From NCBI GenBank assembly GCA_050293845.1, contig JBNKNM010000162.1:1-12924 (forward strand): DNA of 12,924 nucleotides, written 5' to 3'. This DNA is from Pseudobacteriovorax sp. GTDB lineage: Bacteria > Bdellovibrionota_B > Oligoflexia > Oligoflexales > Oligoflexaceae. The notes beneath the pieces were generated by a model that worked only from the letters and a program-made list of their open reading frames with translations, searched no databases and was not told the origin of the DNA. Below, one piece after another: positions 1 to 12,924 of this stretch; the first letter of the stretch is position 1; the number at the start of each line of letters is the position of its first letter. The translations under genes and the position numbers were made by a program.

Positions 1-770
1 ATTCTGATTACGCTGCCAAGTAGTAGCCATATAAATATGTAGTAACCGAAGTGCCACCATAATTCGGTTTTTGCTTGGGCTTGAGGGATTAATTTCGGGA
101 GAGATTCAAGTTCACGCTTCTTATGATCGTATATCTGCTTTGCGTTGAGAAAGCTTGCTTCAAAAGCTCTAGACTTTGTGTCGAACATGGGACCGCAATC
201 AGGCACTCGACTCAGCTCACAGGACTCTCGATCAACATTTGATTTGGGCCACTTATTCAATAGATAAGTTGTTCTAGCTTTAGTCACTCCAAGAAGTTTT
301 TCACTTAGTTCTTTTTTTAGACTAGTACGCTGTGTCGAAATCACTGAGAGTTGGTCCAATTGGATCTCTCTTTCGAAGAAAATGAAGGCCCCAAACATGT
401 TAGCAATGATAATACAACTTGCAACGCACAGATTTATTCTTGACTGGTGACAACTCTGAAGATTTCGAATCTTTGAAAGATGATCGAATGCCACATAATC
501 TGTAAAAAAAGCAAGAACCCATGACATGACCATGGAATTGGTTTTAGAAAAATTTCCACTACTAGATAATACTACCTGAATAAACCCAGCAGTTACTGGA
601 ATAATGAATAAATACAGTCCGAACTTGATAACTGAGTATTGAATCTTGTTGAAGATTCCAGTGGGATGTTTTGGTATCTGTTTTTTGTTTTGATTATCGC
701 TTAGATATTTATATTTCGCAGCCAGAACTTCGAAAGTTTTTTCATGATTGTAAAATTCTGCTATACTCAT
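1..770 (-). CDS. Membrane protein (3 TM + coiled coil + C-terminal TM), 3'-partial; paralog of 10961..11812
   Basis: Not in the ORF track because it runs off the left edge. Manual translation from ATG at 770 is open to position 1: MSIAEFYNHEK...LYLFIIPVT...TDYVAFDHLS...LDQLSVIST...TTYLLNKWPKSNVDRESCELSRVPDCGPMF...QAKTELWWHFGYYIFIWLLLGSVIR, colinear with 10961..11812. GAGGA lies upstream. Confidence 0.9.
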   Translation of the reverse strand, partial: MSIAEFYNHEKTFEVLAAKYKYLSDNQNKKQIPKHPTGIFNKIQYSVIKFGLYLFIIPVTAGFIQVVLSSSGNFSKTNSMVMSWVLAFFTDYVAFDHLSKIRNLQSCHQSRINLCVASCIIIANMFGAFIFFEREIQLDQLSVISTQRTSLKKELSEKLLGVTKARTTYLLNKWPKSNVDRESCELSRVPDCGPMFDTKSRAFEASFLNAKQIYDHKKRELESLPKLIPQAQAKTELWWHFGYYIFIWLLLGSVIR

Positions 771-847
771 TTTAGTCAATTCCTCATCCTTGAGAGAGTT
801 GCTTCTCGTTCTGGGCTTAAGAATGGGGATTCTGACCGGAGCGAGAA

Positions 848-874
848 ATAGCTGTGGTACGGTACCACAGCTAT
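848..874. promoter_or_regulatory. Perfect palindrome ATAGCTGTGGTAC-G-GTACCACAGCTAT; candidate parS/operator (copy 1)
   Basis: 13-bp arms with a 1-nt spacer, overlapping the parB stop codon. The 17-bp core TGTGGTACNGTACCACA recurs at 2702..2718. Confidence 0.7.
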
Positions 875-1725
875 ACTATTTCAGATTCTATTGTTCTTGC
901 TTGACGACTATTGATAAACTTCATTGCCTGTAAAGCAGACAATAAGCTTTTCTTAGATTCAAGGTCCAAACTATACTCATTGAAGTAATCTAAAACCCTT
1001 GACTCAGGCTTAGGAGAACGGGCAGCCGATTGCTTTCCATTTATGACTGCTTTTACCTCCCTAAGCACGTCTTCATCATCCATCTTTTTTCTTGCAATTA
1101 CTGTCAGATTTTTACTTGTGAATTTCTCCGGATTAGCTCTTATTAAAGCTTTGGCTTCTGGAGGCCACTTAGACATTTTTATGTCTCTTAGTATTGTAAT
1201 CCTATCTCTACCAAAAAGCTTTGATAGTTCAGTTTGTTTGTAGCCTTGTTGGGCTAACTCACCAAAGCACTCTGCTACATCTAGCGGATGTAGATTTTTT
1301 CGATTTAAATTTTCTGCCATAGAAGCCGTCATATGCTCATCGGCGGCATCGAAAATGCGAATTAGACACTTAACTTCTGTATAACCTAAATCCTTAGCGA
1401 CTTCGATTCTTCGTCCTCCGCCTACTAATAAAATCTGTGGCAAACCGAACTTATTATCGACAATCGTAACAACTGGAGATTGTAGTATTCCATGTTTCTT
1501 TACTGATTCTAGGAGTTCTTGATATTCCCTAGAGTCTCTATCGAAAGCTTTCCTAATATTGTGCTTAGTAACAATTAGTTGAACAGGGATTGGGCCAACC
1601 TTTCCATCAAACTCTCTTAGTTTCTTTATCCTATCTAAGTCCCAACCCTCTGGCATTTTAGTGGAAAGTGATTTGGCTATTGAAAGAGCCTCTTTCTCAA
1701 TATCAATTTCAATTTTACTTGCCAT
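871..1725 (-). CDS. parB: ParB/RepB/Spo0J-family partition protein
   Basis: ParB CTPase-domain motifs (NIRKAFD, L.ESVKKHGILQSPVV, VGGGRRIEVA), ENLNRKNLHPLD.A, and HTH QTELSKLFGRDR. Directly downstream of parA with AGGGAG RBS. Confidence 0.93.
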   Translation of the reverse strand: MASKIEIDIEKEALSIAKSLSTKMPEGWDLDRIKKLREFDGKVGPIPVQLIVTKHNIRKAFDRDSREYQELLESVKKHGILQSPVVTIVDNKFGLPQILLVGGGRRIEVAKDLGYTEVKCLIRIFDAADEHMTASMAENLNRKNLHPLDVAECFGELAQQGYKQTELSKLFGRDRITILRDIKMSKWPPEAKALIRANPEKFTSKNLTVIARKKMDDEDVLREVKAVINGKQSAARSPKPESRVLDYFNEYSLDLESKKSLLSALQAMKFINSRQARTIESEIV

Positions 1726-1742
1726 AACTATTTTCTCCCTAA

Positions 1743-2612
1743 TTAAAAGGCATCAGCAAATGACTCTTCGAAATCCGTGGCTCTCTCCACTCGAAGCGGT
1801 TTTTGTGGACGACCAGTTCTTTTACCCTTTAAAAGGGGTAGAATTTCTTTCGCTAGATTCATGTATGCAACTGTAACTGGTAAGTGAGAATTGTGGTCGA
1901 TTAACGGAATTTGAGAGGCTGAAGAACTCGCAATTGCAGTTGATGAAGGTATAATAGTTTTAAGGATAGGGACAAAAGTAGTTTTCTCTAGCTCTCTCAT
2001 CTTTTTTTCAAACTTTGTATGAGTTCGATTTTTAGAATTAACTGCGGTTAGTACTACCCCCAGAAATTTGAGCATAGGATTAATATCTTCCTTTATTTCC
2101 TCAATACACTTTGAAAGATCTTTCAAACCTGCATAGGGATGCTTTTCAGCAAATGCGGGTACTAGATAATAATGGGAATAGCCCATAACACTGGTTAAAA
2201 CTGGGTCTATTGAGGGGTGAGTGTCAATTAGTATAACGTGGTAATCCTCAGCTTCAGGGCAATCCAAAAGTCTCTTGATTACCTGAAACTGTCTAGCAGT
2301 CCCTTGCAGCTTATTCATCTCAGTATTGAATGAAATATCATTAGCAATTAAGTCGACGTTTTCGTTTTTTGTCGGGAGTCTTAAGTCACCAATTGTTAAC
2401 CCTTTTCGAACTGCATAAGTTAGAGTTTTTTCTTTCTTTATAGCTGAGTCTTGCAGACCAAGCCAATCGGATGCATTTCCTTGATAATCACCGTCAACAA
2501 TTAAGACTTTTAAGCCTAGGTGGGCAAATGAAAAAGCGAGATTTACCACAGTTGTTGTTTTTCCAATGCCTCCTTTCTGGTTGCTTACCGCTATAATATT
2601 GGGCTTCTTCAT
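1743..2612 (-). CDS. parA: ParA/Soj-family ATPase without N-terminal HTH
   Basis: Deviant Walker A NQKGGIGKTT, A' motif VDGDYQGN, Walker B ILIDTHP. Start moved to ATG 2612 (MKKPNIIAV, 289 aa) because GGAG precedes it and a promoter lies within the longer 2717 extension. Confidence 0.95.
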   Translation of the reverse strand: MKKPNIIAVSNQKGGIGKTTTVVNLAFSFAHLGLKVLIVDGDYQGNASDWLGLQDSAIKKEKTLTYAVRKGLTIGDLRLPTKNENVDLIANDISFNTEMNKLQGTARQFQVIKRLLDCPEAEDYHVILIDTHPSIDPVLTSVMGYSHYYLVPAFAEKHPYAGLKDLSKCIEEIKEDINPMLKFLGVVLTAVNSKNRTHTKFEKKMRELEKTTFVPILKTIIPSSTAIASSSASQIPLIDHNSHLPVTVAYMNLAKEILPLLKGKRTGRPQKPLRVERATDFEESFADAF

Positions 2613-2654
2613 CTGCTTTTCTCCAAACAAAAGTCCAGGTTTAATCTTCCAATA

Positions 2655-2684
2655 ATTATATATTAGTGTGACTTTAAATGTAAA
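2655..2684 (-). promoter_or_regulatory. Sigma70-type promoter of parAB
   Basis: TTTACA-N18-TATAAT on the minus strand, about 40 nt upstream of the parA ATG. Confidence 0.6.
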
Positions 2685-2700
2685 TACTTTTCTAAAATAA

Positions 2701-2719
2701 GTGTGGTACCGTACCACAC
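2701..2719. promoter_or_regulatory. Perfect palindrome GTGTGGTAC-C-GTACCACAC; candidate parS/operator (copy 2)
   Basis: Core is the exact reverse complement of 853..869 and lies just upstream of the parAB -35 box. Confidence 0.7.
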
Positions 2720-2791
2720 AACACTTACAAAAAGCTTCTTATGAGATAATGTAAGTTTTTTCAATATTCTCACCTGTAAAAAACAAGCCAG

Positions 2792-2857
2792 TGTCTTTTA
2801 GAGTTTAAAAGTGGGGTAAGACACCTGTGATTGAGATGCGTACTCCAAACTTTGACG
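2792..2857. other. Possible remnant of resolvase-binding (res-like) subsites
   Basis: TGTCTT...AAGACA dyad (2792..2823) followed by TGT...GTACTCCAAACTTTGAC, which resembles GTACTCAAACTTTAC at 5913..5927. Confidence 0.25.
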
Positions 2858-2896
2858 TAAGAGAACCAACAACATGAGGTAGGTTGGGGTCCATAG

Positions 2897-3451
2897 TTAC
2901 TTCTTTTGCGAAAGAATCCCCCGAAGCTCACCTACTTCTTGCAGCACTTTTTCATACTTTGTCTGAATAAGAAGCATGTCCTCGTATTTGTCTTGGATCG
3001 CCTTTTTATTGTATTCGAGATCCTTGATTTTATTCTCTTTCTCACGAATCATCTCGACCATTTCTTTCCCATGTTTCAGCTCGTAGTCAAGTTTTGATTC
3101 GAGTCTTCTAATTTCGGCCAGACCATCATCTCGTTCTTCTTCAGCCAAGGCAAGCCTCTCACCTAGTTCCTTTTTTACTGCTTTTAATTCTAGGTCCGCT
3201 TCGGCCTTAGCTTTCGCCCATATCTGAGTTGCCATTGATTTCGCAAGTTCGATCAACTCTGGAGGCGTGTCGGCGGTATGAGTTATGGCGGTTGCTTGTC
3301 GCTGATCTTTCCATTCTCTGAGAAGGGGCTGGATCGAGGAAAAAGATCCACCGCCAAGGGCTTCGCGAACTCGGGCAAGGGTAGGTTTCACGCCACAGGA
3401 GTTTAGATCGTCGCATATAGCAAAAATATTTGTTTTATCAGCAGGTTTCAT
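2897..3451 (-). CDS. kfrA: KfrA-like plasmid DNA-binding coiled-coil protein
   Basis: N-terminal KPTLARVREALGGGSFSSIQPLLREWK matches the KfrA_N signature, followed by a long heptad-rich coiled coil. Adjacent to parAB. Confidence 0.85.
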   Translation of the reverse strand: MKPADKTNIFAICDDLNSCGVKPTLARVREALGGGSFSSIQPLLREWKDQRQATAITHTADTPPELIELAKSMATQIWAKAKAEADLELKAVKKELGERLALAEEERDDGLAEIRRLESKLDYELKHGKEMVEMIREKENKIKDLEYNKKAIQDKYEDMLLIQTKYEKVLQEVGELRGILSQKK

Positions 3452-4009: not shown

Positions 4010-4368
4010 TGAAAGAAAAACTTGGGCGTTTCGTGATAGATCTTGAAGCAGCACTAGATGATAAAGGCAACCTTGATGCCAAAAAGTGCCACAGTATCTA
4101 TTTGGAAACAGTAAAAAGAATTTGCCTTGAAGCAAGTGATGCTAGTAACTCAGAGAAAAAAGAGTACTTCGATTTTCTATCGGACCTATCTGATCTGAAG
4201 GACATTGAATTAGCGAAATATCTTGGTGCAACGCGTGGACAAGTTTCAGAGTGGAAGCGAGCAGAGAAAGGTATTAGTAACTCAACATGGGGACTGATTC
4301 GTATTTTTTTCTACGAGTATTTGATTAATGGCGTTATTCATCCCGTGCTGGAGACAAAGGCAGTCTAA
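4009..4368 (+). CDS. XRE/Cro-like HTH protein, putative antitoxin/repressor
   Basis: C-terminal LKDIELAKYLGATRGQVSEWKRAEKGIS HTH pattern, GGAGG RBS, translationally coupled to the upstream ORF. Its stop overlaps the convergent stop of 4365..5030. Confidence 0.7.
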   Translation: MKEKLGRFVIDLEAALDDKGNLDAKKCHSIYLETVKRICLEASDASNSEKKEYFDFLSDLSDLKDIELAKYLGATRGQVSEWKRAEKGISNSTWGLIRIFFYEYLINGVIHPVLETKAV

Positions 4369-5030
4369 CTGGTCTGAAGCCGATCAATAAAATCATTCCT
4401 AAGCGACAAACTCATGCATTCGAATTCAATTCGGGTATCAGTGATATTCACGCGCACCCCAAACTTGCTCCGCAGTGAGTCTACTACGTGGAGCAAATTT
4501 GGATCAGGCTCGCTGGGTTGCTTCCGCACACCGCGCACGGCATTTTCGAAGTTAGTTTTATAGTAAACGGCAGCTTTTCGAAGCTTAGAATATTTCTCCT
4601 GAAGCGCTGATAGTTTTGACTGAAGCTCTTTTGACTCATGTCTAAGGGTTCTATTTTCATGCTTTTCATGGGCTAGAGCCTCGCGAGCGCGTTCAACCTT
4701 CACCGAATTTTTGGTCCCTATGCTATATATACTTATGGACCTCACCACCTGGCTTAGCTTTTTAAGTTTGGTAGCAAGTGTACGGCCAAAAGTTCTAGAC
4801 CGGACGCTGTCAACGATGCGCTTAATAGCAGATTGAGATTTTTTTGCGAGAATATGGCGAGTTTCGATGTCGGCTTTGGCGATAAATTTTAGCCGCGAGA
4901 TCCATCGGCGATCAAGACCAAAGCGTTTTCCAAGCTCTGATTGGGTTTCTTTACTGTGGCGGATTTCAGCTGCAATCCGTATTAGCTCTTTTCCAGATCT
5001 CAAAAGTGCCCCCAGGTGCAAAATACTCAT
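4365..5030 (-). CDS. ParB-like HTH + coiled coil + Spo0J-type C-terminal domain, no CTPase domain (copy A)
   Basis: HTH TQSELGKRFGLDRRWISRL, central heptads, C-terminal DPNLLHVVDSLRSKFGVRVNI..TRIEF...LRNDFIDRL. About 78% identical (hand count, no gaps) to 7974..8642. True start may be TTG at 5003 after a GGGGG RBS. Confidence 0.8.
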   Translation of the reverse strand: MSILHLGALLRSGKELIRIAAEIRHSKETQSELGKRFGLDRRWISRLKFIAKADIETRHILAKKSQSAIKRIVDSVRSRTFGRTLATKLKKLSQVVRSISIYSIGTKNSVKVERAREALAHEKHENRTLRHESKELQSKLSALQEKYSKLRKAAVYYKTNFENAVRGVRKQPSEPDPNLLHVVDSLRSKFGVRVNITDTRIEFECMSLSLRNDFIDRLQTS

Positions 5031-5175
5031 TTATTTAAATAAATTATATAGTTGCTGTATTTTTTTGTAAAGGACAGAGATTATCCCAGGATACAATGTG
5101 CAAAAAATAGGCATTGCGTATTCCAGGCGTGGCGGTAATTACTTGGTTTAAAATATTTAGACAAAAAACATCTGT
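4945..5175 (-). repeat. 231-bp inverted repeat, left copy (pairs with 7829..8059)
   Basis: Reverse complement matches 7829..8059 with 7 mismatches in 145 nt of upstream DNA and none in the first 86 nt of the ORF. Confidence 0.95.
5043..5071 (-). promoter_or_regulatory. Sigma70-type promoter of copy A
   Basis: TTTACA-N17-TATAAT, conserved in both repeat copies. Confidence 0.75.
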
Positions 5176-5332
5176 ATAATGATCACCATACAAGCTCGGC
5201 TGAAAAATTGGCTAAGGGTGAAAATTGATAGTTCACAGGATCTTGTTGATAAAGAGGGTGCTTGAACAAGCAAATACAGGCCATCCCTACGTTCTACCAA
5301 ATTGATTAAATTGCGATCAGTTTTTCCTAGTT

Positions 5333-5800
5333 GGGATCAGTTTAGATACGGAGAAAAATCGAACGATCTTCCAAAATCCCTACCTACCAAGACTTTGCTG
5401 GGATAAAATATTGTAAACCGTCGATCGGGCGATCTTCATCATGGAGGCTATCTCTCCTGCAGTGTGCCCACTTTGCCTCAGCCGGCCAACCTTTTGGTGA
5501 TCAACTTTAAACTTAGGTCCAAATTTAATACCCTTCGCCTTCGCCTCATTCCGACCTTCGTTTGTACGCTCCATTATCCTTTGTCGCTCGGCTTCTGCGA
5601 CAGCCGGAGCCGAATAGGATGTTCGTGACTAAGATATAGCTCGCCTATCACCTTGTCGTTTTGAACACATAAACCGGTACGGCAACTATCTCTTTCAGAA
5701 AAAAAACAACTTGTCAAGGGTTAGGCTCCGACCTCTACATGCTGAGCGGCACGGGTTCTAGGAAGATCGTTCGATTTTTCTCCGTATCTAAACTGATCCC
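5333..5800. mobile_element. 468-bp non-autonomous Tn3-family miniature element
   Basis: Perfect 40-bp terminal inverted repeats GGGATCAGTTTAGATACGGAGAAAAATCGAACGATCTTCC (5333..5372 and 5761..5800) resembling Tn21/Tn501-type ends. Contains a resolvase remnant and no transposase. No 5-bp target duplication is visible (only GTT on both sides). Confidence 0.8.
5380..5604 (-). pseudogene. tnpR: C-terminal fragment of a Tn3/gamma-delta-type serine resolvase
   Basis: [29 protein letters not shown]...[10 protein letters not shown] corresponds to the resolvase E-helix, hinge and HTH. The catalytic N-terminal domain (YARVS) is absent. Confidence 0.9.
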
Positions 5801-5961: not shown

Positions 5962-6129
5962 TCAACCCCTTAGAGCAGAATTTATTCCAAGGGTGAATAT
6001 CGCAAGGTCTCTTGGATTATCAGATAACAGCTTTCTTATAGCAGCGATATCTTTTAAAGAGCGGATCGGTTCCACTCTTATCGTGCTGCCTGGTTTTGGG
6101 TGGTTGATATTTTTCAAAGCATGGACCAT
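5962..6129 (-). pseudogene. N-terminal fragment of a small tyrosine recombinase (phage integrase family)
   Basis: 55 aa, below the ORF-track cutoff: MVHALKNINHPKPGSTIRVEPIRSLKDIAAIRKLLSDNPRDLAIFTLGINSALRG*. VEPIR and RD..IF.LGINSALR match the box I region. The expected DL follows out of frame, then similarity is lost. Confidence 0.85.
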
Positions 6130-7828: not shown

Positions 7829-8059
7829 ACAGATGATTTTTGTCTAAATATTTTAAACCAAGTAATAACCGCCACGCCTGGGATACGCGATGCCTATTTT
7901 TTGCACATTGTATCCTGGGACAATCTCTGCCCTTTACAAAAAAATACAACAACTATATAATTTATTTAAATAAATGAGTATTTTGCACCTGGGGGCACTT
8001 TTGAGATCTGGAAAAGAGCTAATACGGATTGCAGCTGAAATCCGCCACAGTAAAGAAAC
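7829..8059 (+). repeat. 231-bp inverted repeat, right copy (pairs with 4945..5175)
   Basis: Gap-free match to the left copy; paired coordinates sum to 13004. Confidence 0.95.
7933..7961 (+). promoter_or_regulatory. Sigma70-type promoter of copy B
   Basis: TTTACA (7933..7938), 17 nt, TATAAT (7956..7961). Confidence 0.75.
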
Positions 8060-8642
8060 TCAATCCGAACTCGGTCGACGCTACAATATTGATCGCCGCT
8101 GGATCTCGAGGCTTAAATTTCTTGCGAAAGCTGATCTAGAGACCCGTCAGATTCTTGCTCGAAAGTCCCAAACGACAATCAAGCGAATCATCGATACAGT
8201 CAGATCCAAGGCATTTGGACGAACACTCGCGACAAAGCTTGAAAAACTACGTCATGCTGTAAGGTCCATAAGTATATATAATATAGGGACGAAAAATGCA
8301 GCCAAGGTCGAGCGGGCACGCGAGGCATTGGCTAATGAAAAGTACGAGCATAGGCAACTAAAAGAAAAGTCAAAAATGCTTGAGCAACAGCATTCTAGCC
8401 TACAAGAAAAACTTTCCAAGCTACGTAAAGCTGCCGTTTACTACAAGACGAATTTTGAGAATGCTGTGCGTGGTGTGCGCAAGCAGACTGCCGAGTCTAA
8501 CCCTAACCTACTCCATGTCATCGATAGCCTTCGCAGTAAGTTTGGGGTGCGAGTATCGATTAACGATACTCGGGTGGAGTTTGATTGTATGAGTTTGTCG
8601 CTGAGAAATGACTTAATTGATAGGTTAACAGCGGCGGATTGA
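7974..8642 (+). CDS. ParB-like HTH + coiled coil + Spo0J-type C-terminal domain, no CTPase domain (copy B)
   Basis: Paralog of 4365..5030 with many synonymous and conservative changes, supporting a real gene. True start may be TTG 8001 after GGGGG (7991..7995). Confidence 0.8.
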   Translation: MSILHLGALLRSGKELIRIAAEIRHSKETQSELGRRYNIDRRWISRLKFLAKADLETRQILARKSQTTIKRIIDTVRSKAFGRTLATKLEKLRHAVRSISIYNIGTKNAAKVERAREALANEKYEHRQLKEKSKMLEQQHSSLQEKLSKLRKAAVYYKTNFENAVRGVRKQTAESNPNLLHVIDSLRSKFGVRVSINDTRVEFDCMSLSLRNDLIDRLTAAD

Positions 8643-8779: not shown

Positions 8780-8809
8780 GAAGAGGGGAGATTTCTGTAT
8801 CCCCTCTTC
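8780..8809. terminator. Hairpin between convergent genes, candidate terminator
   Basis: GAAGAGGGGA-N10-TCCCCTCTTC touching the stop codon of 8808..9623; U-tract is weak. Confidence 0.45.
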
Positions 8810-9623
8810 AATATTGATAGTTCAATTGATATATAGTTTTCCTATCAGGATTTTTTGATCGCTTAATAACCTTCTTAGTTTCCATTTTTTTAAGAGCTAC
8901 AGTTAGGTGAGAAGACGGAATACCAGTCCCCAATTCAAGCTCCCGGTTAGTCGCAACAAATGTGATCTGATTTTTTTGAATTTGAACTTTTAACAAATAT
9001 ACCAAGATACGCATTTCTGTCTTATTCAAATCATGTCCGCCCAAATAATCAAGCATGGACATAACATGTTTCTTACTTAACCTACTATTATAATGAATAT
9101 TTTCTGAGTCATTACCATTTCTTGGCACATTTTCCGTAGCTACGCTTTTCGTACTAAGATTTCTATAATTTGGTCCTTCGGAATCAAAGTTTTTTGTAGC
9201 TACGTCTTTAGCAGCTACTGATTCCGTAGCTACAGATTTCGTAGCAATACTTTTAGCACCTACTGATTCCGTAGGTACGTCTTCAGCATCTACAATTTTC
9301 GTAGCTACACTTTTAGCACCTACTGATTTCGTAGGTACATCTTTAGTATCTACAGTTTTCGTAGCTACACTTTTAGCACCTACTGATTCCGTAGGTACGT
9401 CTTCAGTATCTACAGTTTTCGTAGCTACACTTTTAGCACTTACTGTTTCTGCATCGGAAACTTTTCTTTCATCGAGTTGCTTTGATTTTTTCTTAGATGT
9501 AGTTTTTGACTTAGAACTTTTAAGTAGTTTATCTCCTTCTTTTAAAATACTCAGATTGTCATAGTTATTTTTAGACTTTTTATTCTTAGCTCTTTTTCCT
9601 AATATTTCAGTTATAGTTGCCAT
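8808..9623 (-). CDS. ParA-coupled protein: basic N-terminus, pentapeptide repeats, C-terminal winged helix
   Basis: Start overlaps the parA stop (TAATG). C-terminal LNKTEMRILVYLL...ATNRELELGTGIPSSHLTVALKKMETKKVIKR...TIYQL is a wHTH pattern. No ParB CTPase motif. Confidence 0.75.
   Translation of the reverse strand: MATITEILGKRAKNKKSKNNYDNLSILKEGDKLLKSSKSKTTSKKKSKQLDERKVSDAETVSAKSVATKTVDTEDVPTESVGAKSVATKTVDTKDVPTKSVGAKSVATKIVDAEDVPTESVGAKSIATKSVATESVAAKDVATKNFDSEGPNYRNLSTKSVATENVPRNGNDSENIHYNSRLSKKHVMSMLDYLGGHDLNKTEMRILVYLLKVQIQKNQITFVATNRELELGTGIPSSHLTVALKKMETKKVIKRSKNPDRKTIYQLNYQY
9196..9443. repeat. Intragenic array: 17 G(T/C)ANNTAC octamers at 15-bp period with a 60-bp higher-order repeat
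   Basis: Octamers at 9196, 9211, 9226 ... 9436 (GTAGCTAC, GCACCTAC, GTAGGTAC, GTATCTAC; the 9241 copy is degenerate), plus an in-phase GTAGCTAC at 9136. Confidence 0.95.
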
Positions 9624-10660
9624 TATCTACCTACAGCCTCCTCACCCAAATTGTTCACTACAGAAGATGATTTTGTTCTTTTTTTCGCTGATGCCCATTG
9701 ATCAATAACGAGAATTTTCTTAGTGATAGAATCCAATCCCTCTAGGGCAGTAAGTTTTTTTCTACTCATAGCCCAAATGCTCTTATTTTTCTTTATTGCA
9801 TCTGCCATAGGTTTTGATGTTGAGATTATTGACTCGAACACATCATCATTGTATTTGCTTTTTAGGTCAGCAATGAGTTCGTAGGCACTTGTGTGACTGG
9901 CGTTAAACTTATTTAGTATGACCAACTTTTGTGGTGAGTTTTTCCATTCTTTTTCAACTTGAGAAACATGATCATATGTAAGCTCAACACCAAATAGACC
10001 AAAGGTGTCAGGATCTGTTGGTATGATACAAGTATCCACATAACTATGTACAGCCATAGTAACTCTATTGAAATCACATGATAAATCAAAAAGTATTAGA
10101 TCATACTCATCTTCTAAATCCCCAAGTAGGGTGGGTATTATATTTCCGATATTAGAAGAATTTAGTTGCAGCAGTAGATCCAAGTTCGCAAGTTTAAGGT
10201 TAGCTGGTAATAAGTGAAGAAACGGAGTTAGCTCAACAATATAATCACTATAATCGATATCTTCACCATCTCTTTCTGCAGTATACAAATCCATAAAATT
10301 GCAAAAATCATCCTTTTTTGGATGTAAAGCTAATGACATCGTCAAATTTGCTTGCTTATCAAGATCTATTAACAATGTCTTGAATCCATAGGAACTTGCT
10401 CTAGTTCCCACACCATGTGCAATTGTCGTCTTCCCAGCTCCACCTTTTACTGTATGAATTGCCACCTTTTTCTTAACCCTGGGTATCTGACGCATATCAG
10501 TAATTTCTCTTACCTGTGCAGGGTAGATTCGATCGGATTTATTTGTTCCCTTTTTTTCAATTCCATTTTCGCGACAAAACTTATGCACCGCCTGAGCTGT
10601 AACTCCTAATACCTCACCTAGTTCTTGGGCAGTTAAAAAATAGTCAAAAAGCTCACTCAT
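9623..10660 (-). CDS. parA: Type Ia ParA ATPase with N-terminal HTH
   Basis: N-terminal LTAQELGEVLGVTAQAVHKF HTH, Walker A KGGAGKTT, IDLDKQANLT, YDLILFD; GGAG RBS. Confidence 0.92.
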   Translation of the reverse strand: MSELFDYFLTAQELGEVLGVTAQAVHKFCRENGIEKKGTNKSDRIYPAQVREITDMRQIPRVKKKVAIHTVKGGAGKTTIAHGVGTRASSYGFKTLLIDLDKQANLTMSLALHPKKDDFCNFMDLYTAERDGEDIDYSDYIVELTPFLHLLPANLKLANLDLLLQLNSSNIGNIIPTLLGDLEDEYDLILFDLSCDFNRVTMAVHSYVDTCIIPTDPDTFGLFGVELTYDHVSQVEKEWKNSPQKLVILNKFNASHTSAYELIADLKSKYNDDVFESIISTSKPMADAIKKNKSIWAMSRKKLTALEGLDSITKKILVIDQWASAKKRTKSSSVVNNLGEEAVGR

Positions 10661-10723
10661 TGGCGAATCTCCAAAGTATATAAAAAACGTATTACAACTA
10701 AATTTTAGAAAACAATTCTCATC

Positions 10724-10817
10724 ATTTCTACGAAAAACGTACCTACTTAAGTTGTATCTACGAAATATGTAGATACAACTTAAGTAGGTACGTTAACTGT
10801 AGGTACATAATCCGTAC
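10724..10817. repeat. Non-coding GTANNTAC array at 15-bp period containing a perfect 26-bp-arm palindrome
   Basis: GTACCTAC 10739, GTATCTAC 10754, GTAGATAC 10769, GTAGGTAC 10784, GTAGGTAC 10799, with in-phase half sites at 10724 and 10814. 10736..10761 is the exact reverse complement of 10769..10794. Confidence 0.92.
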
Positions 10818-10901
10818 ACTAATTACCAGTTAAACTATACAAAGATCTAAAATATCTTACCTAACTAGCATTAAGAATAGTAAAAGTAGTTGTTTTCGGA
10901 G

Positions 10902-10960: not shown

Positions 10961-11812
10961 ATGATGGAATTCAGACTGCAATACCTGGAATCAGACCCCA
11001 AAATAAAAGCCAGATTTAGATCAAGGAAGGCATATTGGCTTAAGAAGGGATTATCTGAAGAACAAGCTATATGCAGAGCTAATGAAGTCTTTGAAAAAGA
11101 TGATCCTTTATTTATGGAAGACGAACGAATAAAAGTTAATTTCTTTCATAGGAATAAGTACACCATTCTCAAATTGACTCTATATGCTTTGATTATCCCG
11201 GTAACCATTCAGGTAATACACTCTGCCCTTTCTAAAATGGGAATGCATCCTCAAATAATTTGGGGGTTATCATTCATACTTGCAATAGCCACTGATTATA
11301 TTGCTGTCGACCACATTTCTAATGTGAGAAGTCTTAAAAGAGGGATAGAACAAACTAATTTCGCAATTGCTCTCTTTATTATCTTCGCAAATTTAACAGG
11401 AGCGTATTGGCTACTCAAAAAAGAAGTAAAACTTGATCAGCTTTCTGTAATCTCTTCCAAACACACCGAAATGAAAAAAGAAGTAGATGCCAGACTAAAG
11501 ATCATGACCCAAACCAAAACAACATATCTTCTTAACAAGTGGCCTAATTCTAAAATCTCCAGAGAATCATGCGAATCAAGTAGAGTTCCAGAATGTGGGC
11601 CAATGTACGCCAAACAATCCCGCCCGCTAGAAGCAAAATACTTAACCTCCAAACAGCTCTACGAACATAAAAAAGCAGAGCTAGAAAAACTCCCGACACT
11701 ATTCCCCCAAACTCAAGCAAAAACCGAATTTTGGTGGCACTTCGGTTACTACGTATTTATTTGGTTGCTACTTGGCAGCGTAATTCGAATGGAAAAATTG
11801 TCTCAAGCTTAG
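10961..11812 (+). CDS. Membrane protein (3 TM + coiled coil + C-terminal TM); paralog of 1..770
   Basis: Three N-proximal hydrophobic segments, a coiled coil interrupted by SCESSRVPECGPMY, and C-terminal TM WWHFGYYVFIWLLLGSVI; GGAG RBS. Confidence 0.85.
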   Translation: MMEFRLQYLESDPKIKARFRSRKAYWLKKGLSEEQAICRANEVFEKDDPLFMEDERIKVNFFHRNKYTILKLTLYALIIPVTIQVIHSALSKMGMHPQIIWGLSFILAIATDYIAVDHISNVRSLKRGIEQTNFAIALFIIFANLTGAYWLLKKEVKLDQLSVISSKHTEMKKEVDARLKIMTQTKTTYLLNKWPNSKISRESCESSRVPECGPMYAKQSRPLEAKYLTSKQLYEHKKAELEKLPTLFPQTQAKTEFWWHFGYYVFIWLLLGSVIRMEKLSQA

Positions 11813-11831
11813 CCCCATATTGATCCAATTT

Positions 11832-12924
11832 ATGCAGGAAGCTGAAGTGGAAACTGAGAAGTCAAAAACAATTTTTACTAGCGTTGATATTCAAAAAGCT
11901 TTCATGCTTTTACGGACGCATACATGCATACCCGAGCTAGCTCTTTCAAGATTGCTGCTTATCTTTCTTCAGATGTCTTCGAATTTTCGAAAAGCCGGAG
12001 GTGGATATGACCTTGGGCAATTGTGGACCATATCCAACAATTATCTAGCACAGATCCTTGGATTCTCGGTTTCTAGTGCTAGCGGCACCAAAAACACATG
12101 GCATGGATTTAATTTAGTTACGCTCAACGGTGAAGACTTCGGTCTGATGTCATACGAAGATGATGGAACCATACATAAGCATGGTAGTCCCTATGCCCAC
12201 AAGGTCGCTCTATCAAAATCCCTATTAAATTTTTTTCGAAAAGTGAAAGCTGGTGAAAATATTACAGAAGAAGATTTTGACTTTTTTCTTCCCCATGAAA
12301 ATTACGCCCGCATGTGCTACCGGAAAAAGAAAAACAATGTCTCCAATGTTCGCCGCTGCATTATGCGTAAGCACGCTGAAGAAAATAATCTCCCCATTCC
12401 CGCCGAGATTGATTATCTCTCCAGCGTTGAGCGTAAAAAGCGACTCTATGCTCGACCCGATACATACCACATCAAAGTTCGAGAGATAAGGGCAAAACAA
12501 CCCACTCGTAAACAAAAACGACTGCTAAAATCCTGGAAGTCAGATTTCATCGAGTATTGGCATGTCTATGGATTTGATGAAGCATTAAAACGCATTAAAA
12601 AAAGGTTAAAAGAAGCAGGCTACGACCGCGAAGAGTATATCCTATCTCTGGTAAATATTATTCAAAAGCGAGGCCGGGGCAACGATGTTTTATTCGCCAT
12701 CAACTACATATTTAATAAGCTATATGTAGATATCATCGATGCCATTACCGGAAATATAGACGGTCCCATGGTTTCATTATCAAATTTTGTTTCGACATTG
12801 AAACTAGGAAACATCCCATCCGCCACCATCCAAAAATCTTTTGAGTATTGGAGTACAGGAGTTGGACTAACTAGGAATCAGATTCACGAGCTGAGTTCTA
12901 CTATTTCTCATCTTCTAAACAGCG
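11832..12924 (+). CDS. Long hypothetical protein, 3'-partial (at least 364 codons); possible replication initiator
   Basis: Not in the ORF track because there is no stop in the window. Manual translation MQEAEVETEKSKTIF...WTISNNYLAQILGFSVSSASGTKNTWHGFNLV...ELSSTISHLLNS is open to the edge, with a wHTH-like segment and a basic central region. GTG 11847 is an alternative start. The ORF is solid; the function is a guess. Confidence 0.7.
   Translation, partial: MQEAEVETEKSKTIFTSVDIQKAFMLLRTHTCIPELALSRLLLIFLQMSSNFRKAGGGYDLGQLWTISNNYLAQILGFSVSSASGTKNTWHGFNLVTLNGEDFGLMSYEDDGTIHKHGSPYAHKVALSKSLLNFFRKVKAGENITEEDFDFFLPHENYARMCYRKKKNNVSNVRRCIMRKHAEENNLPIPAEIDYLSSVERKKRLYARPDTYHIKVREIRAKQPTRKQKRLLKSWKSDFIEYWHVYGFDEALKRIKKRLKEAGYDREEYILSLVNIIQKRGRGNDVLFAINYIFNKLYVDIIDAITGNIDGPMVSLSNFVSTLKLGNIPSATIQKSFEYWSTGVGLTRNQIHELSSTISHLLNS

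Follow-up and report, generated by a model that had tools for sequence, protein, structure and literature searches.

One of the questions that arise from partition genes is how a ParA ATPase finds its centromere when the gene that follows it does not encode ParB. Such a case is found in a contig of 12,924 nucleotides from Pseudobacteriovorax sp. (assembly GCA_050293845.1, contig JBNKNM010000162.1), where parA is followed on the minus strand by a gene for a different kind of protein, which we call the adaptor and consider a candidate centromere-binding protein (CBP). The window that we analyzed is this whole 12.9-kb contig, which has 38% GC and belongs to a 6.68-Mb draft genome of 741 contigs. 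Two arrays of the octamer GTANNTAC lie 1.3 kb apart around parA, one in the non-coding DNA upstream of it and the other inside the adaptor gene (Table 1). From the sequence we can suggest that these arrays are probably the centromere and the operator of the adaptor, and that the locus is a ParA-driven partition cassette. This reading is supported because the upstream and the in-gene cores co-vary from locus to locus.

Two octamer arrays around parA

GTANNTAC is matched 18 times in the window against 1.77 expected, and none of 200 shuffles reached 18. Five of the matches are upstream of parA, 11 are within the adaptor gene (9136-9428, in one 15-bp phase) and two are elsewhere (2680 and 5135); 16 copies are thus placed in two 15-bp-phased arrays that flank parA. 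Genome-wide there are 1161 octamers, and groups of three or more sites occur at only three places, namely the two arrays and, on another contig, a GTAC microsatellite. Chance or CRISPR-like repeats were ruled out as an explanation, as the period is 15, there are no CRISPR-type spacers and the array is coding.

In the upstream array the octamers start at 10739, 10754, 10769, 10784 and 10799 (span 10739-10806), and half sites are found on the minus strand at 10821..10814 (TAGTGTAC) and 10730..10723 (GTAGAAAT). The array forms a large palindrome because three GTAYCTAC are followed by three GTAGRWAY. A first-pass annotation, made from the letters alone, had counted five full and two half sites here, and each of them could be assigned an exact position. 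It had also placed the octamer 17 times inside the gene (9196..9443). The 17 phased 15-nt units are indeed there, yet only 10 of them hold the exact octamer, while six read GTANNTGC and one ATTGCTAC. Tandem Repeats Finder gave periods of 15, 30 and 60 with 0% indels. In the window the two arrays share only the octamer and its phase, and their 7-bp spacers differ, a pattern that is more easily explained by selection on the core than by a recent copy. A period of 15 bp puts neighbouring sites about 154 degrees apart around the helix and suggests that bound protein would form a spiral rather than a one-sided stack.

The codons of the intragenic array were compared with the genome usage taken from 1501 long open reading frames (ORFs). 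Within the repeats GTA accounts for 17 of 19 Val codons (24% genome-wide; 2/6 elsewhere in the gene), GCT for 14 of 15 Ala codons (38%; 2/4), ACG for 10 of 16 Thr codons (12%; 0/11) and AAA for all 14 Lys codons (64%; 16/26). Positions 3, 6 and 12 of the unit, which are third codon positions, are fixed in 16-17 of the 17 units, while positions 4-5, which are first and second codon positions, are variable, so that the residue differs between units (A, D, P, G, S). The earlier claim that Val is encoded by GTA, and that the next codon ends in T while its residue varies, thus agrees with these counts. Fixed third positions with varying residues are the reverse of what would be expected under protein-level selection.

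Table 1. Features of the window, with those of the adaptor cassette first.
Feature	Position	Strand	Description
Adaptor (CBP candidate) gene	8808..9623	-	271 aa; ATG overlaps parA stop (TAATG)
N-terminal part, residues 1-38	9510..9623	-	two short predicted helices with ParB-like motif
Intragenic array	9196..9443		17 units of 15 nt, coding strand GTA NNT RCK RAA NNN
Isolated in-phase octamer GTAGCTAC	9136..9143		60 bp beyond the intragenic array
C-terminal winged helix-turn-helix, residues 184-271	8811..9074	-	AlphaFold2 (AF2) model
Terminator-like hairpin	8787..8804	-	directly after the CBP stop codon
parA	9623..10660	-	345 aa; AAA_31 E 5.8e-28, CbiA E 5.3e-14, both above cut-offs
Promoter-like site for parA	10702..10730	-	TAGAAA-17-TAAAAT, 9/12, consensus match only
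Upstream array	10723..10821		5 exact GTANNTAC and 2 half sites, strict 15-bp period; between divergent gene X and parA
Perfect inverted repeat	10736..10794		26-nt arms, 7-nt centre; inside the upstream array
Gene X	10961..11812	+	283 aa; hydrophobic stretches by eye; divergent from parA
kfrA-like gene	2897-3451	-	KfrA_N E 2.3e-22; second par locus
Second-locus parA	1743-2717	-	
Second-locus canonical ParB	871-1725	-	matches ParB_N and ParB HTH

Related loci and their DNA words

Does this layout occur elsewhere, and with the same DNA word? A ParA search over 131 genomes of the phylum gave eight places at E <1e-70, which are the window and seven homologues with 35-45% identity (Table 2). L025, among these seven, comes from the source genome of the window itself, as a second copy (ParA 45% identical). 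In all eight loci a GAGG-type ribosome site precedes the following gene, whose start is at, or overlaps with, the stop codon of parA. A canonical ParB is encoded there in one of the seven loci and a non-ParB protein in six; four of these six are confirmed winged helices, one is a probable winged helix and one is cut by the contig end. Repeat sites were found within the partner gene of L010, L011, L025, L012 and L013, and none within that of L009.

Table 2. Partners of the seven ParA homologues and their repeat sites.
Locus	Partner	Sites in the partner gene	Sites outside it
L008	canonical ParB (ParB-box GHRR motif read in the translation)		
L010	154-aa winged helix	TCTAAAWCAG core in 8 units of 15 nt, translated ASKTE	9 units between X and parA
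L011	cut by contig end	RACASTGT, 15- and 60-nt periods	5 units GACACTGTTAGGCCG upstream
L025	runs off contig C355 within the repeat	at least 9 identical units GCTACAGCGGAAACT	6 units GCAGAAAGTGCAGCA upstream
L012	710 aa	GTAGCYA, counted 20 times	upstream cluster, 520-720 bp from parA; parA itself has none
L013	winged helix	four 25-bp palindromes GGTAGGCAC-N7-GTGCCTACC	more downstream at the contig end; one half site upstream
L009	winged helix	none	17-bp direct repeats TTTAGGTAGCACCAAAG immediately downstream, at least 17 of them (a lower bound, a run of 100 N at 3348-3447 interrupting the array); none upstream

In L010, L011 and L025, as in the window, a 15-bp tandem array with a related core is also present in the intergenic region between X and parA. 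The cores shared by the upstream and the in-gene sites are TCTAAAWCAG in L010, RACASTGT in L011 and GCWRCAGCRGAAAST in L025, and they are different in each locus; in L025 the upstream GCAGAAAGTGCAGCA and the in-gene GCTACAGCGGAAACT are identical at 11 of 15 positions after rotation. In a motif cross-table each of the three cores that were tested as patterns was confined to its own locus, with no match in its own parA or in the upstream regions of the other loci. In the two other genomes that were checked the arrays are the sole clusters of their core; 16 of the 52 core matches in a 6.2-Mb genome form the two clusters and the rest are singletons, and in an 8.2-Mb genome all 10 matches of a two-unit pattern fall within the two arrays, with none for the controls. 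When the upstream and in-gene arrays were compared as profiles, the values on the diagonal were 8.6 (window), 12.5 (L010), 7.1 (L011) and 11.0 (L025) of 15.

Co-variation between upstream and intragenic arrays next to parA had been named by the first-pass annotation as a way to check its proposal, and it was found in the window and three further loci, each with a core of its own. The opposite pattern, in which homologs conserve the peptide with randomised codons and have no upstream array, had been named as one that would speak against the proposal; here the peptides differ between loci (KSVAT, ASKTE, TATAE, DSVPH and others) while the DNA layout is kept. The in-gene periods of 15, 18 and 60 are multiples of three and the extragenic array of L009 has a period of 17, which fits an adaptation of the in-gene site spacing to the reading frame; the L009 period need not be a multiple of three because that array is outside a reading frame.

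Two of the loci have features of their own. Contig C489 (L004) begins with the L025 repeat and continues into a winged helix with 32% identity. With C355 it appears to make up a second system of the same design in the source genome, with both contigs ending in the same perfectly repeated 15-nt unit; the system would be split over the two contigs because the array broke the assembly. In L013 the half sites are 15 bp apart and both strands of the palindrome read VGT(K/D)(S/L)VPT. At 2226-2490 and 2802-2846 of this locus the palindromes give VGTKSVPT on one strand and would give VGTDLVPT on the other; as the centre of the palindrome is imperfect, the protein contains both versions. This array of L013 runs past the contig end.

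Several observations weigh against the centromere and operator reading, in addition to those given below with the rival that they favor. The codon test alone is weak because the repeat units of the window are recent duplicates (a 60-nt higher-order repeat with 89% matches; 13 distinct units of 17) and not independent samples, which inflates the codon statistics. The diagonal value of the window, 8.6, is only modestly above the off-diagonal values of 5.2-8.2, and that of L011, 7.1 of 15, is below the 8.6 of L011 against L025. A plain test for 8-mers shared between upstream regions and adaptor genes separated only L010. L009 has neither an intragenic nor an upstream array, L013 has only one upstream half site, and the upstream cluster of L012 is distant (520-720 bp) and not tandem. 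The join of L025 to L004 across two contigs is assumed. Finally, the genomes that hold these loci are related and belong to one order, so that full independence of the loci cannot be assumed.

Such relatedness between arrays can also be explained if only the upstream array is functional, as an operator or a centromere, and the intragenic repeats are neutral passengers, copied from that array into a tolerant, disordered linker and kept alike by gene conversion and slippage. The L010 arrays are nearly identical (12.5/15), as after a recent conversion, and the 100% identical units of L025 point to ongoing slippage; in the window, on the other hand, the spacers differ between the two arrays while octamer and phase are kept, and the L013 sites are separate 25-bp palindromes through the linker and not a slipped tandem. 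A peptide that is not conserved between loci, in a linker that is predicted to be disordered, would be expected of passengers, as would a relative without any linker. Such a relative was found when the C-terminal 110 residues of the adaptor were searched with HMMER against 1.84 billion representative proteins, where the single match, P0002, is a stand-alone winged helix of 90 aa with 54% identity and without the N-terminal peptide and linker. Still, in-gene sites recur in the partners of L010, L011, L025, L012 and L013, and most loci have more sites in the gene than upstream. We give this explanation only a slim chance.

The adaptor protein and its probable contact with ParA

Based on its sequence, the window's ParA is a Walker-type ParA/MinD ATPase, with KGGAGKTT present and Walker A at residues 72-79. 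Its N-terminal extension of 62 aa holds a helix-turn-helix (HTH) resembling HTH_17, which is sub-threshold (E 0.008-0.017 in three of three homologues, below the 27-bit cut-off). The nearest NCBIfam model is partition_RepA, at 61.8 bits against a cut-off of 348. Of the earlier assignment to type Ia, the architectural likeness can be kept, that is a long ParA with an N-terminal extension, while the HTH is seen only below threshold. The adaptor gene is translationally coupled to parA. The -35 hexamer of the promoter-like site for parA overlaps the last half site of the upstream array; promoter-like sites are not enriched in the region (5 against a shuffle mean of 8.6).

The adaptor combines a ParB-like N-terminal peptide, a predicted disordered linker of about 140 aa made of 5-aa repeats, and a C-terminal winged helix. 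It has no ParB_N or HTH_ParB match in Pfam or NCBIfam, while the other ParB of the window (871-1725) matches both. In the full-length model short helices are found at residues 4-13 and 23-38, residues 40-179 have a predicted local distance difference test (pLDDT) value below 50 and no secondary structure, and the winged helix has 85-95. The intragenic array is translated within this linker (residues 40-179), as (V-x-T/A-K/E-x) repeats. An AF2 model of the last 100 residues, from an alignment of seven sequences, has a pLDDT of 84 and the order H-H-E-H-H-E-E of a winged helix. A winged-helix partner that is not a ParB is what the first-pass annotation had proposed, and the missing ParB_N match, this model and the MarR-, RepA-type-initiator- and DnaD-like folds returned by Foldseek all agree with it.

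A linker made of 5-residue repeats could also have its role at the protein level, perhaps as a spacer whose length is set, as a tail that is multivalent or forms condensates, or as an H1-like DNA-binding tail, with the DNA likeness to the upstream array being secondary. The pentapeptide SV(P/A/G)TK occurs in the window, in L013 and in the distant P0001; this leaves room for a protein-level role and counts against the reading that we prefer. P0001 was the only protein found with the whole adaptor in a word-indexed search (E 2.4e-4), through the repeats alone. It is a metagenomic protein of 292 aa with SV(P/A/G)T(K/E) pentapeptides on both sides of a region that resembles a winged helix by eye. 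There are also sub-threshold low-complexity matches to HC2 and H1-like proteins. Against such a role, the peptide repeats are wholly different between loci and are neutral to acidic, not basic; third codon positions are fixed while amino acids vary, non-coding upstream arrays have the matching core, and in L013 the palindrome that reads VGT(K/D)(S/L)VPT on both strands is a DNA property. We consider the protein explanation highly improbable. A histone-H1/HC2-like DNA-binding tail as such was rejected, with the low-complexity matches far below cut-off and the repeats not basic; these matches are compositional because the adaptor repeats are neutral to acidic.

The fold of the winged helix raises the question of whether the adaptor is a replication initiator, or an initiator and an adaptor in one, with the arrays being origin iterons and ParA merely co-transcribed. 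Foldseek returned MarR-type regulators first (E 5.6e-4), and its further matches include a DnaD model and the N-terminal domains 4pql, 4pta and 4pt7 at template-modelling (TM) scores of 0.54-0.59, which we take to be those of RepA_N plasmid initiators. Among the seven winged-helix members, sub-threshold family matches were found to Phage_rep_O in five (E <=0.01, best 1.5e-05), to DnaD_N in three and to RepL in two; these initiator matches also weigh against a pure partition role. The same members match TrmB (5/7) and MarR_2 (3/7), and SarA has a similar score; RepL reaches 21.9 bits with the 100-aa domain (cut-off 20.3) and 19.3 with the whole adaptor, and a profile search of PDB sequences with the winged helix gave TubR (6tey) at E 0.0045. 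These matches are near or below cut-off and, as sequence evidence, are generic for winged helices, as MarR, TrmB and TubR score alike.

Other evidence bears on the initiator from both sides. An origin within a gene has a precedent in oriV of p42d, which is located within repC, with RepC acting in cis (PMC3155836). No recognisable Rep gene was identified in the window by the Pfam and NCBIfam scans. In L010 the upstream array has the par operon on one side and, on the other, an operon with a gene for a Toprim primase-like protein; that gene, beside X, is at the same time a separate one, which argues the other way. So does the N-terminal motif, which is common to the canonical ParB that follows a homologous ParA, and the coupling of the adaptor gene to parA in eight of eight loci. 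The DNA-binding domain is C-terminal and is the sole folded domain, leaving no second domain for helicase recruitment. With 17 to at least 20 copies, and with no fewer than 17 units behind the L009 gene, the sites are more centromere- than origin-like, and the array within the gene is coding repeat throughout, with no AT-rich unwinding tract. We regard an initiator as unlikely.

If the adaptor is the centromere binder, the next question is which protein reads the arrays. The N-terminal HTH of ParA is nearly identical in all eight loci (G19, Q23 and H26 are invariant). Helix 3 of the winged helix varies: an x-S/N/T-H type (window, L009, L012, L013) goes with GTAG-type words, and helix 3 of L010 and of the L025 partner (C489, L004) is different, as are their words. 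This fits the adaptor, and not ParA, as the specificity determinant, because the ParA HTH is constant and helix 3 groups with the DNA word. The HTH of ParA as array reader was rejected, its helix being conserved across loci with different words.

The contact with ParA can be suggested from the first ~40 residues of the adaptors. These contain a Box 1, [I/L]-x-[E/D]-[I/L]-[L/M] with basic residues, and a Box 2, [Y/F]-D-[I/L]-L..G..[L/I]-V; in the window they are I-x-E-I-L with basic residues and Y-D-x-L..G..L-L/V, and the basic N-terminus of the adaptor belongs to this two-box motif. The motif is common to the winged-helix partners, to the canonical ParB of L008 and to a third type of partner (L014-L017). 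In these last loci a ParA with 26-29% identity is followed by a partner of ~260-270 aa with Box 1, which by eye is neither ParB_N-like nor a winged helix. A complex prediction with a ParA dimer, ATP and adaptor residues 1-55 scored 0.36, against 0.02 for the best of three controls, with a partner pLDDT of 50-54 and runs that agree in at least 80% of contacts. In the calibration of the tool 116 of 157 solved complexes and 2 of 215 mismatched pairs reached the mark, and only 18 of the 157, together with both mismatches, did so at <=0.60; this job differs from the calibration in its own alignments and the ligand present. The predicted complex gives weak support, as a small addition to an already likely pairing.

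A putative cassette, its relatives and its neighbors

We infer the following mechanism from the sequence layout, its recurrence and its co-variation. The usual ParB would be replaced by an adaptor of three parts, in which the N-terminal peptide of ~38 residues would contact, and probably stimulate, ParA, the linker would be disordered, and the winged helix would recognise the octamer GTANNTAC. The adaptor may coat both arrays, with 5 to 7 sites over the parA promoter and 17 to 18 inside its own gene. The promoter array would serve as operator and lead to autorepression, and both arrays together would form the partition complex, or centromere, which may show many tethered N-terminal peptides to nucleoid-bound ParA-ATP. 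This contact would drive plasmid separation by the usual ParA gradient mechanism.

In such a cassette the DNA word could dictate the peptide repeat because the linker tolerates almost any hydrophilic sequence, and gene and site would be inherited and diversify together because they are physically one. A further idea, which we find rather doubtful, is that the in-gene array makes the cassette self-loading and self-measuring. A new adaptor would emerge beside the array of its own gene and load in cis, since the winged helix is made last and transcription and translation are coupled; an occupied array would also block RNA polymerase past parA, within the adaptor gene, and so set the ratio of ParA to adaptor. 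On this view a change of incompatibility specificity could originate in, and spread with, one piece of ~0.8 kb that holds site and reader together. The likeness of the winged helix to O-, DnaD- and RepA_N-type initiators would then point to descent of the adaptor from an initiator with iterons already in its gene, and the array may still couple replication to segregation.

How does this cassette compare with known partition systems? Its presumed mode of action is that of a type Ib cassette whose adaptor is an orphan and which has repeat arrays at its flanks; by the usual criteria it is a member of neither Ib nor Ia. It is not type Ib because its ParA is long and its adaptor is not a ribbon-helix-helix protein, and it is not type Ia because the adaptor is not ParB. 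Type Ib systems, such as pB171 par2 with parC1 and parC2, TP228 ParF/ParG and pSM19035 delta/omega, have a short ParA (about 200-230 aa) without N-terminal extension and a small ribbon-helix-helix binder, and short repeats arrayed over the promoter act in them as centromere and operator alike; in ParG and omega a flexible N-terminal tail acts on ParA. Here ParA has 345 aa with an HTH-like extension, the partner is a larger, winged-helix protein with a 140-aa linker, and the second array is inside the partner's coding sequence and not downstream of it. Type Ia ParABS systems include P1 ParA/ParB/parS, F SopA/SopB/sopC, where sopC consists of 12 repeats of 43 bp, and RepABC RepA/RepB. With these the cassette shares a long ParA with N-terminal extension, the order of parA and then partner in the operon, an N-terminal partner peptide and a tandem-repeat centromere; it differs in its partner, which lacks both the ParB_N CTPase domain and the HTH of ParB. 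Because of the missing CTPase domain there would be no CTP-clamp spreading, and many sites must substitute for it.

Among winged-helix proteins TubR of TubZRC is likewise a small protein that binds tandem iterons into a segregation complex, while the motor here is a ParA ATPase and not TubZ, with no significant sequence relationship (TubR E 0.0045). Other winged-helix centromere binders are AspA of pNOB8 and Par of pSK1, and to our knowledge neither a ParB-like N-terminal peptide nor an in-gene array occurs in the TubR, AspA and pSK1 Par systems. Acting sites within genes are found in the lambda ori iterons within gene O (in the linker-coding part), in RepA_N origins within rep, and in B. subtilis, where parS lies within spo0J; such a parS is a single 16-bp palindrome. 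Like these and the oriV mentioned above, the site here is embedded in the coding sequence of the protein that would bind it, yet it differs in being a centromere-type array of 17 to at least 20 sites that fills the linker and matches a non-coding array upstream. Iteron initiators have an N-terminal DNA-binding domain and a domain that recruits the helicase or its loader, with iterons by an AT-rich unwinding region; the winged helix of the adaptor is, in contrast, C-terminal and its only folded domain, and the array has no AT-rich tract.

The parCAB system of Myxococcus plasmid pMF1 offers another likeness. It has two arrays, ItA and ItB, and a ParB without homologues; this ParB represses the operon, and its AGATGTCT-type iterons lie on either side of the operon and also along the plasmid (PMC3235114). 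As here, a Walker ParA has a non-ParB partner without database homologues, and short, partly palindromic words flank the par genes and overlap the promoter; the pMF1 partner autoregulates, and here the array overlaps a promoter-like -35 hexamer. In the literature, with partial full-text coverage and subscription journals outside it, no account was found of a ParA partner with a centromere-type array within its own gene.

Relatives of the cassette are few. A profile search for longer proteins found six, all unnamed or 'hypothetical', at least three of which are the adaptors of L012, L013 and L009; two of the six are labelled as from an Oligoflexales metagenome-assembled genome (MAG) and a 'Deltaproteobacteria' MAG. 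Plasmid records gave no match to the locus (megablast) or to three adaptors (tblastn), viral contigs gave none, and neither did metagenome contigs scanned with an alignment of close adaptors and with P0001. The winged helix was found in none of 21 other genomes in a family-level search, and ParA gave only one irrelevant short match against genome contigs.

Partition systems are classified by motor and adaptor, and a long ParA with a winged-helix adaptor, in which the N-terminal peptide is all that is left of ParB-like features, falls between types Ia and Ib. The putative ParA-contact peptide looks like a portable module, as one ParA clade has at least three different DNA-binding bodies behind it. 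A centromere array inside the coding sequence of its reader would be a clean natural example of dual coding, with the peptide repeat of a disordered linker being set by the word to which the reader binds. The loci, with the same layout and different words, offer a panel for centromere-reader co-evolution, the splitting of incompatibility groups and the sequence tolerance of linkers. In-gene arrays also break short-read assemblies, as in C355 and C489, and can pass as low-complexity protein repeats in annotation.

The rest of the contig contains a second, unrelated par locus on the minus strand (871-3451). The two ParAs of the window can be aligned only around Walker A. Gene X and the ORF at 11820-12923 were assigned no family in Pfam and NCBIfam scans; homologues of gene X have the same divergent position in three related loci and are downstream of the array in a fourth. 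Gene X has a paralogue in the window (3-779, 53% identity), and so has a coiled-coil protein (221 and 222 aa; 4365-5030 and 7974-8642, 79% identity in inverted orientation), with one copy of each pair near each par locus. Recombinase remnants are found between the copies, namely a 64-aa piece of resolvase-type HTH_7 (5380-5574) and a 55-aa ORF (5962-6129). The contig seems either to combine two related backbones or to be two plasmids wrongly joined in the assembly. Its GC and AT skew gave no origin signal.

The gene for the 222-aa coiled-coil protein (7974-8642) is convergent to the adaptor gene, and a family search with this neighbor returned only coiled-coil noise. In L012 the gene at 5020-5664, downstream of the 710-aa adaptor, resembles by eye the C-terminal part of this protein, and the coiled-coil gene is possibly a further conserved neighbor of the cassette.

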